Source: a virus (lineage: Duplodnaviria > Heunggongvirae > Uroviricota > Caudoviricetes). From it: a stretch of 13,028 nucleotides of DNA. Position numbers: made by a program. The stretch lies in the IMG/VR virus record IMGVR_UViG_2734482780_000013, positions 1 to 13,028 of that record, one strand, 5' to 3'. Numbering within the stretch: position 1 is the stretch's first letter; every line of letters begins with the position of its first letter. Of this stretch, positions 3,001-6,000 are shown one piece after another.

Positions 3001-6000
3001 GGAAGTGCCAAAGCCATCTGAGCTTTAATTTTTGGGTCTGCCAGAAGTCCGGCCAGAGTTGTTGGTTTCTCATTATGATGTGCAACTTGGTTACCGGTAG
3101 CCGCTGCCTTAAGTGCATTGATAGACATTTTTTCTCCTTACTTCATTCTGAAGACGCGTTGTGTCGTTGTTGTTTTGAATTTTTCGAATAACTCAGGGTG
3201 TACTGACTGGAATAGCTTCTGGTCGAATCTGTTGCTGATCTGAGATTTCCATGTGCAGAGCGGCTTTCCGTCCAGGGTCAGGACTGAGTGCTCTTGCATG
3301 TACATCTTCAGCTTCTCTTCTGATATAGCTATTTCTTCTTCCAGTGATTTTCTGCGTGACTTCATGTCTCGTAGATCGTTGAATAGTGCGAGTGCCTTTC
3401 CGTCAGCCTCGATACTTGTCCCGGCCTCTTTCTCAAACATCAGCGATACATCGCTTACGCTGGTAGCTTCCGGCGGGTTAAGATTTTTCACTCGGTCCCA
3501 GAAAGCGATTTCTTTTTCTAAGATCGCCTGGATAGTTTCTTCATCACGCTCAACCCGATAGATTCGGAAGTCGTCGCCACCGATAAGCACACCGAAAACG
3601 CATACCTGTTTGTTTGTAACCATCAACCCGTGCATGGCCTGGGCCGTGTAATGCACAGGAATTGCATCTGTCTGGATTTCTCCCCATTCTTTGGCTTTGA
3701 ACGGACTAACTGTTTTTATCTCAATGTTCTCGCCTGACGCTGCTTCTGCATCGATCTCAGCTGCAATAAAATCGTAATCACGGTGGATATAGCGGTTTCC
3801 GCGATGAACGATTTCCATCCCTGTTTCCTCAGAAAGCAGGTCTATTACGTATGGCTCCATACGCTGGCCACGCGTGAAAACTTTCTGCTTGCTTGGGTCT
3901 ACTGGTTTGACACGTGGCTGGACCTTATCCAGATAAACCTCAAGCGGGGTGCGCCATGGGCTAATTCCAAGAATCCCTGCAACATCGCTTCCTCCGATGT
4001 ATTTTGTTCTATCCATGATTCCAGCGTTCCGCATCATGCCGCGTCCCTCTGCCCATCAAGCTGATCAGCCAGATCCCAGCGGGCGATAATTGCCATTGCC
4101 TCGCGCCGGTAGGCATCCATTAGTTCTTCGAACTCAGGGCTGTCTTTAGCGGCCTCCAGTACTTCCTGGCGAACACCTTTGCCTGTTACAACGTCGAAAG
4201 TTGAGGCCAGTTGATGAAGCCGGATACTCTCAATCAGTTCAACTTGTCGGTCATATAGCTGTTCTGACAGGCGGTAGTCCTTGTCGAATGCCAGCATGAT
4301 TTTTTGAAGATTTTTCTGCTGATTAACGTTCATTATCAGCCCTCCCATATCTCGTTATCGTTGGCCACATCGCGAGCTTCTTTGCTGACGAAAGCCCACT
4401 TAATGCCTTCCTGTAAGGTGCGGAACTTCCAGCTCATGAATCCGCATGCAGTAACGCAGTACCAACCGTTGATGATTTTCCACTGCATAATTTGTTACCT
4501 CGGTCTGTTACCGTTGAGGTAATGATTATGCGTATTTGGTTTGATGTCAATAGATATGAGTTAAAAAAATTACCCGCCAGGTAATCGTATAGGCAATAAA
4601 AAAGCCGCCAGAAGGCGGCTTACTTACTGAAAAATATGATTTTATTGTTTGTTTTTTTCGTTCTGGTTGATGACAAATTCAATGTAACTTTCGATCTTTG
4701 CTTTCTCGGTTTCGGGTAACAATGCGTAGCGCGAGCGGTCATAGTTGATGGTCGCAGGGTCGTGCGGGTGAATCAGTAATTCATAGCCATGACGCCCGAA
4801 TGCGGATGCAACATTCTCCAGGGTGGAAATGGAAACGCTGACCTCATTGTTTAACAGGCGGCTGATTGTCACCTGGGCGACGCCGGATGCGCGGTGAAGT
4901 TTTCCCTGTGTTGAAAGGTCGCGGCTTTCGCTCATCCAGCGTTCCAGGTTGTGAGCCGCCAGCTGACCAATGTCGCTTGGGCCGACAGGCTGAAAACCTT
5001 CCTGAGAAAGCGAGCGATCGATATCAAGCCAGTTACGGGGTTTATTGGCGGCAGCTTCAATTTTTCGCGCAACCTGGTCGCCGATAACCTTCTTGCCAAG
5101 AGCCCAGCGGTTTACCAGATTTGCCTGAGTTCCAAGTTTTTCTGCCATCCGCGTCTGAACACCATTGAATTCACGGTCGATCAAGTCGTTGAGATTTTGC
5201 CTGCGGACGTCCTGGATACTTTTCATTTTCTGGAAAATCGCCTCATATATGAATCAGTAGATGATTCAATTTAAAGCAATATTACCCAACAGGTAAATGC
5301 ACCTCATAGGTAACTACCCTTGATTTTTGTTACCTTATGGGTGAATATTTATTATCTGAAATAAATATCAGGCAATAGCTATGAGCGATAACGGACATTT
5401 CGATTTCAAAAAGCACTGGCTTGCACTCACTCCGGATGAGCGTGAAGCCTTCGCACAGGAAGCCGGAACGACGAGTCACTATATCCAGACTCACTTAACA
5501 GGTAAGCGAAAAATGCCAGGTAAAGTATTGATGAATGGGCTTTTTAAAGCCTGTAAAACAAGACAATGGCTGCGCTCAAAAGCAGAACTGGCATACTTCT
5601 TCTACTCATGATATCCAGCTACAACCCTCTGTAGACCGCCACCCGGCGGTCTTTTCATATCTATTCGTACCTCAAAGGTAATAAAAAACCAAATCTGGTT
5701 GATCTTTTTTTTGTGTCAGCACAAAATAACCGTAATCCCAATACTAATAACAGGGCTTACCATGGAAATCATTACACGTATTGATGCCGCAAAGCGCGGA
5801 CTTAAACGCTACTACACCGGAAAACCATGTAAGCACGGACATGACAGTGAACGCTGGGTTTACAACGGACACTGTGTTGAGTGCACCATGGAATCAAACC
5901 GTCGTATCAGGGCAGAGATTAAGCAGATCATGATTAATTCCTCCCCACAACATTCAAGCTGATAGCGGAGATTAATCATGAGCAGACATGCAACAGATTG

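Follow-up and report, generated by a model that had tools for sequence, protein, structure and literature searches.

Lambda Kil and the Rac-type KilR are phage proteins that inhibit FtsZ and cell division. The genes of lambda, SEN34, Dewey and PhiR5_1 run in the order kil, gam and recombination genes, with gam directly preceding the annealase gene and, in Dewey, one extra open reading frame (ORF) between kil and gam; in P22 the order is c3, kil, arf, erf, abc1, abc2. Dimeric lambda Gam obstructs the DNA-end site of RecBCD by steric occlusion and DNA mimicry, and the N-terminal helix of GamS enters the single-stranded DNA channel of RecB (PMC5218532). The small P22 proteins Abc2, Abc1 and Arf, encoded in a cluster with a single-strand annealing protein, act on RecBCD or recombination (PMC9836394). 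The phages phiV10 and epsilon15 carry two small early genes, p39 and p38 in the former and gp37 and gp36 in the latter, and we analysed the same genes, at the same operon position, in a stretch of Caudoviricetes DNA of 13,028 nucleotides (nt) in which the surrounding prophage is a deletion remnant (IMG/VR record IMGVR_UViG_2734482780_000013, positions 1 to 13,028; hereafter the window). They encode proteins of 50 and 99 amino acids (aa). Judged by their conservation, both are real early genes that are already catalogued as hypothetical proteins, and the 99-aa protein is probably a divergent homologue of lambda Gam.

The 50-aa gene is a 50-codon ORF on the minus strand (4488 to 4336) whose product, MQWKIINGWYCVTACGFMSWKFRTLQEGIKWAFVSKEARDVANDNEIWEG, contains five tryptophans and two cysteines. 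Its ATG occupies 4486-4488 and its TGA 4336-4338; the two nucleotides TA follow, and the ATG of the 99-aa gene begins at 4333. The stop codon of the 99-aa gene overlaps the start codon of the exonuclease gene as ATGA (4034-4037), and the two codons also overlap in most related loci. The features of the region are, from the repressor gene leftward:

4642-5226, minus strand: prophage repressor of 194 aa with two helix-turn-helix (HTH) domains, of the epsilon15 gp38/phiV10 p40 type (Pfam HTH_3, E = 1.2e-9; phrog_8, transcriptional regulator; same position as phiV10 p40)
4602-4621, minus strand: intrinsic terminator 3' of the repressor gene (found by scan; 8-bp stem, six GC pairs, T-run; the phiV10 record has a terminator at the same place)
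4570-4584, no strand assigned: predicted repressor operator TTACC-N5-GGTAA, upstream of the -35 hexamer (exact pattern; kept in eight phages)
4522-4550, minus strand: sigma-70-like early-left promoter, TTGACA-17 nt-AATCAT (promoter scan, 10 of 12 matches; -35 hexamer and -10 region conserved across genera)
4508-4522, no strand assigned: predicted repressor operator over the -10/+1 region (exact pattern; kept in all eight aligned phages)
4497-4501, minus strand: Shine-Dalgarno sequence GAGGT of the 50-aa ORF, 8-nt spacer (read from the sequence; GAGGT stands before the ATG in all aligned homologues despite a differing leader)
4336-4488, minus strand: 50-aa early protein, phrog_898 (phiV10 p39; homologue of epsilon15 gp37; E = 1.9e-38, positions 1-50 of 50)
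4034-4333, minus strand: 99-aa acidic helical protein, phrog_856 (phiV10 p38/epsilon15 gp36; E = 2e-55, positions 1-99 of 99)
3138-4037, minus strand: YqaJ-type recombination exonuclease (Pfam YqaJ, E = 2.7e-23)
2355-3128, minus strand: RecT single-strand annealing protein, C-terminally truncated, 257 aa (Pfam RecT, E = 2.8e-57)

The promoter (4550-4522) lies just downstream of the repressor-gene terminator and is bracketed by the operators at 4508-4522 and 4570-4584. The operator pattern occurs five times in the window, against 0.23 expected, and none of 200 shuffles reached five. The epsilon15 reference record marks repressor-binding sites at positions equivalent to the window operators. By these sequence features, a repressor-controlled early-left operon begins with the 50-aa and 99-aa genes. 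The initial annotation had placed them first behind a candidate leftward promoter, and the sigma-70-like promoter with its two flanking operators is indeed present and conserved. It had also equated this slot with the region in which lambdoid phages encode host-takeover and recombination functions; lambda, SEN34, Dewey, PhiR5_1 and P22 do carry kil there, followed by gam or by anti-RecBCD and recombinase genes.

Three other copies of the operator motif (5282-5296, 5330-5344 and 5667-5681) are located in or near the divergent repressor/cro-like control region, one of them downstream of the 76-aa Cro-like gene. An insertion of about 70 nt is present in the leader of the 50-aa gene in epsilon15 (locus L005) and in loci L007, L008 and L003 (alignment A4, columns ~150-215). 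In epsilon15-type phages and Klebsiella relatives, this insertion holds a short hairpin (CCACCAC...GTGG) and a third operator beside the Shine-Dalgarno sequence; it is missing from the window, phiV10, Tyrion and BUCT554.

Because the 99-aa gene lies directly ahead of an exonuclease/annealase pair, we tested whether its product is related to Gam. Similar to lambda GamS (98 aa; PF06064; phrog_259), the protein is acidic (pI 4.7; 19 Asp plus Glu versus 13 Lys plus Arg) and predicted to be all-helical, at a nearly equal length. Its AlphaFold2 (AF2) model has helices at residues 3-50, 56-63 and 66-98, with a pLDDT score (predicted local distance difference test) of only 66. The gene position is also shared, as both genes are found in an early-left operon directly ahead of phage recombination genes, although the partners differ: Red-alpha and Red-beta for lambda Gam, and YqaJ/RecT or a PD-(D/E)XK exonuclease with RecT for the 99-aa family. 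In the related loci inspected the 99-aa gene is likewise found directly upstream of the exonuclease and RecT genes, with one small gene between in locus L094 and in Tyrion. By contrast, the anti-RecBCD genes of P22 lie downstream of the recombinase gene, and Abc1, Abc2 and Arf have no detectable similarity to either window protein.

An exhaustive HMMER search of 1.84 billion proteins with the family profile returned only 32 cluster representatives, reaching as far as members about 30-55% identical to the protein of the window, and 44 of the 99 columns are invariant across 32 close relatives. We scanned 24,736 Pfam models, 38,880 PHROG models and the DNA of 50,697 phage genomes (2.3 Gb). The family member P0110 matched the Pfam Gam model PF06064 (E = 0.0042), with residues 31-94 falling on profile positions 33-96 of 98. 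For P0110 and for the L094 member, the best non-self PHROG was phrog_259, 'gam-like host nuclease inhibitor' (E = 0.016 and 0.025, respectively), in the same register. Among 177,635 distinct PDB sequences, the family profile placed lambda Gam (5mbv, 2uuz) at the top in a colinear match (E = 0.23). A tblastn search of the phage genomes with P0110 recovered the family's own 36 records and, below threshold, 11 more, all annotated as gam.

HMM scoring and a profile-profile comparison also led to Gam. A hidden Markov model (HMM) built from 20 family sequences scored five Gam proteins at 14.6-21.8 bits in one register, whereas the best of 2,000 composition-matched shuffles reached 12.9 bits. In hhalign, the family alignment matched a five-sequence Gam alignment with a probability of 83% (E = 8.7e-6), aligning columns 33-86 with GamS 35-90, and the HMM built from the five Gam sequences picked up the L094 member among the locus ORFs (E = 1e-5). 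The predicted helix breaks of the 99-aa protein fall at positions aligned to the Gam motifs 'HGAS' and 'DDD'. Pfam, PHROG, PDB, tblastn and hhalign thus converge on a single colinear match over approximately residues 31-90, which favours homology even though no single result passes a curated threshold. On this basis we consider it likely that the 99-aa family is truly homologous to lambda Gam, and the guess of a Gam-like nuclease inhibitor that the initial annotation had made for these two genes gains support for the 99-aa ORF from several independent remote-homology results.

Several observations weigh against this assignment. The window protein itself had no Gam match in Pfam or PHROGs, and its connection to Gam depends on family members with 44-51% identity to it. 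Identity to lambda Gam is only about 22-34%, and the best Pfam Gam score, 17.7 bits, falls short of the 25-bit gathering cut-off. When the single lambda Gam sequence was used, hhalign gave a probability of only 9-12%, and the shallow alignment A2 chose a different register; the comparison was convincing only with the broader family alignment and the five-sequence Gam alignment, the registers obtained with single sequences being inconsistent. Moreover, only the C-terminal two thirds align with Gam. The first 30 residues of the family are predicted to be helical and are conserved within it, but they were unaligned to the GamS N terminus in every comparison, and the N-terminal helix of GamS has no alignable counterpart in the family. 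The target nuclease or the binding mode could therefore differ.

One possible explanation for such faint similarity is that the 99-aa protein is unrelated to Gam and is instead a helical, coiled-coil-like accessory of the exonuclease/RecT module, for example a scaffold or a cofactor similar to P22 Arf, with the likeness being a coincidence of composition. The absence of a match at curated or database-wide significance, the unaligned N-terminal third and the uninformative structure searches all fit such a protein, as does the score of shuffled Gam sequences with the family HMM, which implies that the nominal p-values of HMMER are optimistic for this composition. A compositional coincidence does not readily account for real Gam proteins scoring above all 2,000 shuffles or for five kinds of search singling out Gam in one register, and length, charge and gene position also agree with Gam. 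We therefore regard an unrelated accessory protein as unlikely, and retain Gam homology.

Two further matches were noted in these comparisons. With alignment A2, hhalign placed residues 10-42 on the same C-terminal Gam helix that is matched by the C-terminal half (residues 56-88) elsewhere, which hints at an internal repeat of the helix motif or at a similarity between helical sequences of low complexity. The family HMM also gave 8.6 bits to lambda orf63 (DUF1382; L009 6-197), a score within the range of the shuffled controls that we disregarded as probable noise. A DUF1382 family member is also encoded at the left end of the window (1-315, minus strand). Other searches came back empty: Pfam, NCBIfam and PADLOC scans of the two window proteins returned no match, searching PDB sequences from the shallow alignments A2 and A3 turned up nothing but noise, and scans of viral contigs with P0120 and P0124 gave no matches.

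A viral contig of a different phage type provides a direct comparison with the lambdoid gene order. This contig, L095, is without the 50-aa gene; in it, a phrog_856 member directly follows a KilR-type Kil and precedes an exonuclease and RecT. The L095 Kil matches phrog_294 (E = 8e-24) and is 41% identical to SEN34 Kil. L095 thus reproduces the lambdoid kil/gam/recombinase order with the 99-aa family in the position of gam.

We then asked how firmly the 50-aa ORF stands as a gene. The ORF, its GAGGT at 8-nt spacing and the stop codon 2 nt before the next start were all confirmed from the sequence. The initial annotation had called for a conservation check in relatives, and the frame proved open, with a conserved ATG and Shine-Dalgarno sequence, in 12 of 12 homologous loci from E. 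coli, Salmonella, Klebsiella, Enterobacter, Citrobacter, Scandinavium and Ca. Erwinia. Between divergent pairs, the ratio of nonsynonymous to synonymous substitution rates (dN/dS) is about 0.01-0.15, with the proportion of synonymous differences (pS) reaching 0.76. The antisense frame shares wobble positions with the 50-aa frame and is free of stops in most homologues, and we therefore compared all six frames by the ratio of nonsynonymous to synonymous differences (pN/pS). The 50-aa frame had the lowest value (0.25), followed by the wobble-sharing antisense frame (0.47), and the other four gave 1.25-1.55. By this measure of selection, the 50-aa frame is the coding frame.

The antisense frame corresponds to a plus-strand ORF of 72 aa (4304-4522), and it could be argued that this is the true gene and the 50-aa frame an artefact. 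The RefSeq record of Tyrion (L004) has the equivalent 70-aa ORF, gp39, annotated antisense (2905-3117, minus strand) and omits the 50-aa gene; the antisense frame lacks stops across the region in most homologues, and with shared wobble positions third-position variability alone cannot separate the two. The scarcity of antisense stops, however, follows from a sense frame poor in codons for Tyr, His and Gln. An antisense gene would also run against the early-left promoter in a region in which our scan found no plus-strand promoter-like site. The 50-aa frame, by comparison, has its conserved ATG and Shine-Dalgarno sequence directly behind a conserved promoter. We rejected the antisense ORF as extremely improbable on its higher pN/pS and a stop codon in its frame in locus L098. 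These results indicate that Tyrion gp39, judged by its reading frame, is annotated on the wrong strand.

Neither gene had been overlooked. The phiV10 record lists p39 and p38, noted as 'similar to epsilon15 gp37 and gp36', and the two families are catalogued in PHROG as phrog_898 and phrog_856, both labelled 'unknown function'. The 50-aa protein matches phiV10 p39 at 100% identity and recurs unchanged in 16 phage records; the orthologue of the 99-aa protein in phiV10 is p38, with 97% DNA identity across the region. The 50-aa gene is annotated in phiV10, epsilon15 and many further phage records. The claim of the initial annotation that default gene calling would miss the 50-aa ORF holds for the Tyrion and SPNIS2 records, from which the gene is absent, but not in general: of the 20 E. 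coli genomes that match best, PGAP calls both genes in 18, and among about 500 E. coli genomes, most label the 50-aa protein as hypothetical. Searches of the literature for the two proteins and their accession numbers turned up no paper, and the vB_EcoP_ZX5 paper has no discussion of either. In the literature and annotations searched, no paper or database label links phrog_856 to Gam; the family, which is present in about 10% of complete E. coli genomes and also occurs in phages of Salmonella, Klebsiella and Enterobacter, is 'hypothetical' or of 'unknown function' in the inspected RefSeq, GenBank and PHROG entries.

The 50-aa protein is conserved to a degree that its neighbours are not. Overall it is 70-85% identical in Salmonella, Enterobacter and Klebsiella phages. 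Its N-terminal 25 residues (MQWKIINGWYCVTACGLMSWKFRTL) keep 88-96% identity in eight loci that span E. coli, Salmonella, Klebsiella, Enterobacter and related genera; the two loci at the greatest distance have 80% and 48%. For comparison, identity over these loci is 41-78% for the repressors and 37-55% for the 99-aa proteins, and the exonuclease and RecT genes differ in type. When eight phages are aligned at the DNA level, nearly all substitutions within the first 25 codons are synonymous; the high synonymous divergence (pS 0.5-0.76) ruled out a constraint at the nucleotide level, such as an RNA element or operator, as the cause of this conservation. Homologues in large protein collections come from Enterobacterales only (Escherichia, Salmonella, Klebsiella, Citrobacter, Raoultella, Kluyvera, Scandinavium and Hafnia), and the gene is present in only 6 of 185,579 species-representative genomes.

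In position, the 50-aa gene is always the first after the epsilon15-type two-HTH repressor and the promoter, even where 0.3-1.1 kb separate it from the 99-aa gene. The intervening genes encode a 101-aa acidic protein in L098, proteins of 61 and 308 aa in L097, and a 326-330-aa phrog_1376 protein in L094 and L102. The 50-aa gene is thus anchored to the promoter-proximal position and not to the recombination genes. The two small genes nevertheless co-occur in all 36 phage records that have either one. The inserted 308-330-aa proteins (L094 2513-3493, L102 3147-4139 and L097 2566-3492) are rich in Glu, Arg and Ala and probably form coiled coils; they belong to phrog_1376, which is labelled 'unknown function'.

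Similarity searches assigned no function to the 50-aa protein. It had no match in Pfam, NCBIfam, PADLOC or PDB sequences. Its profile scored about 0 bits against all 25 small early proteins of lambda, P22, SEN34, Dewey, PhiR5_1 and L095 with which we compared it, a set that includes Kil, KilR, CIII, Arf, Abc1, Abc2, Ral, N, gp17 and orf28; the Kil proteins of all six phages were among those at about 0 bits with the family HMM. Compared with lambda Kil, hhalign gave a probability of 0.1%, and neither Pfam nor PHROG returned a Kil match. The AF2 model (pLDDT 55) was unusable and was kept out of the fold search. These results weigh against assigning it any particular function. Two structural readings were rejected. 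A transmembrane N terminus is contradicted by a top 15-residue Kyte-Doolittle mean of 1.1 and by Asp and Arg in this segment of distant members, and a zinc site or disulfide by the replacement of C11 and C15 in Hafnia-type and L094 members. The cysteines behind the Trp/Cys-rich label are not kept in distant members.

Its role can be approached through conservation and position. A near-invariant N-terminal module among fast-diverging phage neighbours makes a host component a likelier contact than a phage partner, which suggests that the N-terminal 25 residues bind a conserved host protein. Because kil fills the corresponding slot ahead of gam in lambdoid phages, our single best guess, by analogy of position, is that the 50-aa protein serves Kil-like host takeover, for instance by blocking cell division, a guess that is tentative and more likely to be wrong than right. 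Lambda Kil (47 aa; PF06301) and KilR (phrog_294) resemble the 50-aa protein in being small and in having their genes just ahead of gam or a gam-like gene in an early-left operon. At low confidence, AF2 models the 50-aa protein as a two-helix hairpin, in keeping with the predicted fold described for Kil (PMC11762379). Unlike Kil, with which it shares no sequence similarity, its N terminus looks beta-rich, with a hairpin-like motif W-x-I-I-N-G-W-Y-x-V. The 50-aa gene lies immediately upstream of the gam-like gene in the window and most relatives but not in L094, L097, L098 and L102, and such variable inserts weaken the analogy to the kil slot.

An alternative is that the 50-aa protein regulates the lysis-lysogeny circuit or the early-left operon, for example by a stabilising action like that of CIII, by modulating the repressor or as a coupling factor of transcription or translation. 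The gene does remain beside the immunity region when other genes are inserted before the Gam-like gene, and it is found only together with the epsilon15-type repressor, being absent from L095, which lacks this immunity region. A co-evolving phage partner is disfavoured, however, by the finding that the N-terminal 25 residues keep 88-96% identity between phages with only 41-46% identity in their repressors. The protein also has no HTH or DNA-binding signature and no CIII similarity, and it is not arginine-rich, unlike N-type antiterminators. We consider a regulatory role unlikely, and a contact with a host protein remains our preferred reading.

The host contact might instead serve counter-defence. 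The 50-aa protein could act as an anti-defence or superinfection factor against a conserved enterobacterial immunity component, possibly one that senses inhibition of RecBCD by the Gam-like protein. Its promoter-proximal gene would be expressed earliest, its module is extremely conserved, the family is restricted to Enterobacterales, and the gene is found with the Gam-like gene in 36 of 36 records. This co-occurrence, however, is explicable by linkage within one phage lineage, and with no PADLOC match, no literature on the protein and a sequence that suggests no particular defence system, we judge an anti-defence role to be quite improbable. Returning to host takeover, a broader version is possible though doubtful: the 50-aa protein may be the founding example of a new class of takeover protein, unrelated to Kil, KilR, CIII, Gam, Abc or Ocr-type proteins, whose N-terminal module would bind a conserved enterobacterial protein of cell division, DNA repair or immunity as the first early-left product, with phrog_856 as a second, hitherto unrecognised branch of Gam whose N-terminal helix may engage RecBCD, or another nuclease, in a different way.

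Taken together, the best overall explanation, in which we have moderate confidence, is a repressor-controlled operon that encodes a 99-aa protein of the Gam lineage and an early 50-aa peptide that may bind a host protein. Once the repressor is lifted, the operator-flanked leftward promoter would transcribe a single operon comprising the 50-aa gene, the 99-aa gene, the YqaJ exonuclease gene and recT, and the 50-aa peptide would be translated as an early product. By analogy with lambda Gam, we infer that the 99-aa protein would form a helical acidic dimer occupying the DNA-end site of host RecBCD. Such a block would protect linear phage DNA and leave its ends to the phage exonuclease/RecT pair. 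Any role of the 50-aa peptide within this scheme we infer likewise.

If the 99-aa protein is Gam-like, the Gam/exonuclease/annealase module of epsilon15- and phiV10-type phages is complete. Having a second, divergent lineage of Gam would allow the modes in which DNA-mimic inhibitors engage RecBCD to be compared and bears on recombineering tools, as well as on the idea of antibiotic potentiation that was tested with lambda Gam (PMC5218532). A further prediction is that defences guarding RecBCD can be set off by these prophages. The 50-aa peptide, for its part, is a compact and very strongly constrained early product without known characterised relatives. The gain is mainly one of annotation, and current understanding is not overturned.

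The window carries a deleted phiV10/epsilon15-type prophage (genus Uetakevirus) at the guaA-yfgI site of E. coli. Megablast and annotation identify the region as a phiV10/epsilon15-like prophage of this genus, its right end adjoins the host genes yfgI and yfgH, and prophages with 95-98% identity to it are present in 559 of the 5,426 complete E. coli genomes (~10%). Homology to phiV10-type prophages stops at about 6090, within the start of a DnaT-like replication gene (junction stretch 5704-6100), and the tailspike gene (6069-8573) follows straight after; the replication, packaging, head and tail genes are missing. The junction between the DnaT-like and tailspike genes was found in none of the 5,426 genomes. 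A 527-bp deletion relative to the intact relative L002 (L002 8339-8865; window 2355-2368) shortens RecT from 340 to 257 aa and takes out almost all of an AlpA-family excisionase/regulator gene. The repressor, operators, promoter, 50-aa gene, Gam-like gene and exonuclease remain intact.

Two other genes of the remnant deserve mention. A 367-aa DndB-like (DGQHR-domain) protein is encoded at 836-1939 on the minus strand (Pfam DndB, E = 2e-46; PADLOC DndB, E = 1.5e-37), between genes for a PerC-like protein and an MT-A70 methyltransferase. The gene is not present in phiV10 or L002, relative to which it forms a 1.1-kb insertion (837-1923), and it may have a role in defence or anti-defence as a moron paired with the methyltransferase. 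On the plus strand, 5699-5962 is an ORF of 87 aa, or more probably of 66 aa with an internal Met as its start. Its product matches phrog_1081 (unknown function; E = 2e-42), includes a stretch rich in Cys and His (CKHGH...HCVEC) and weakly resembles an endonuclease VII PHROG.

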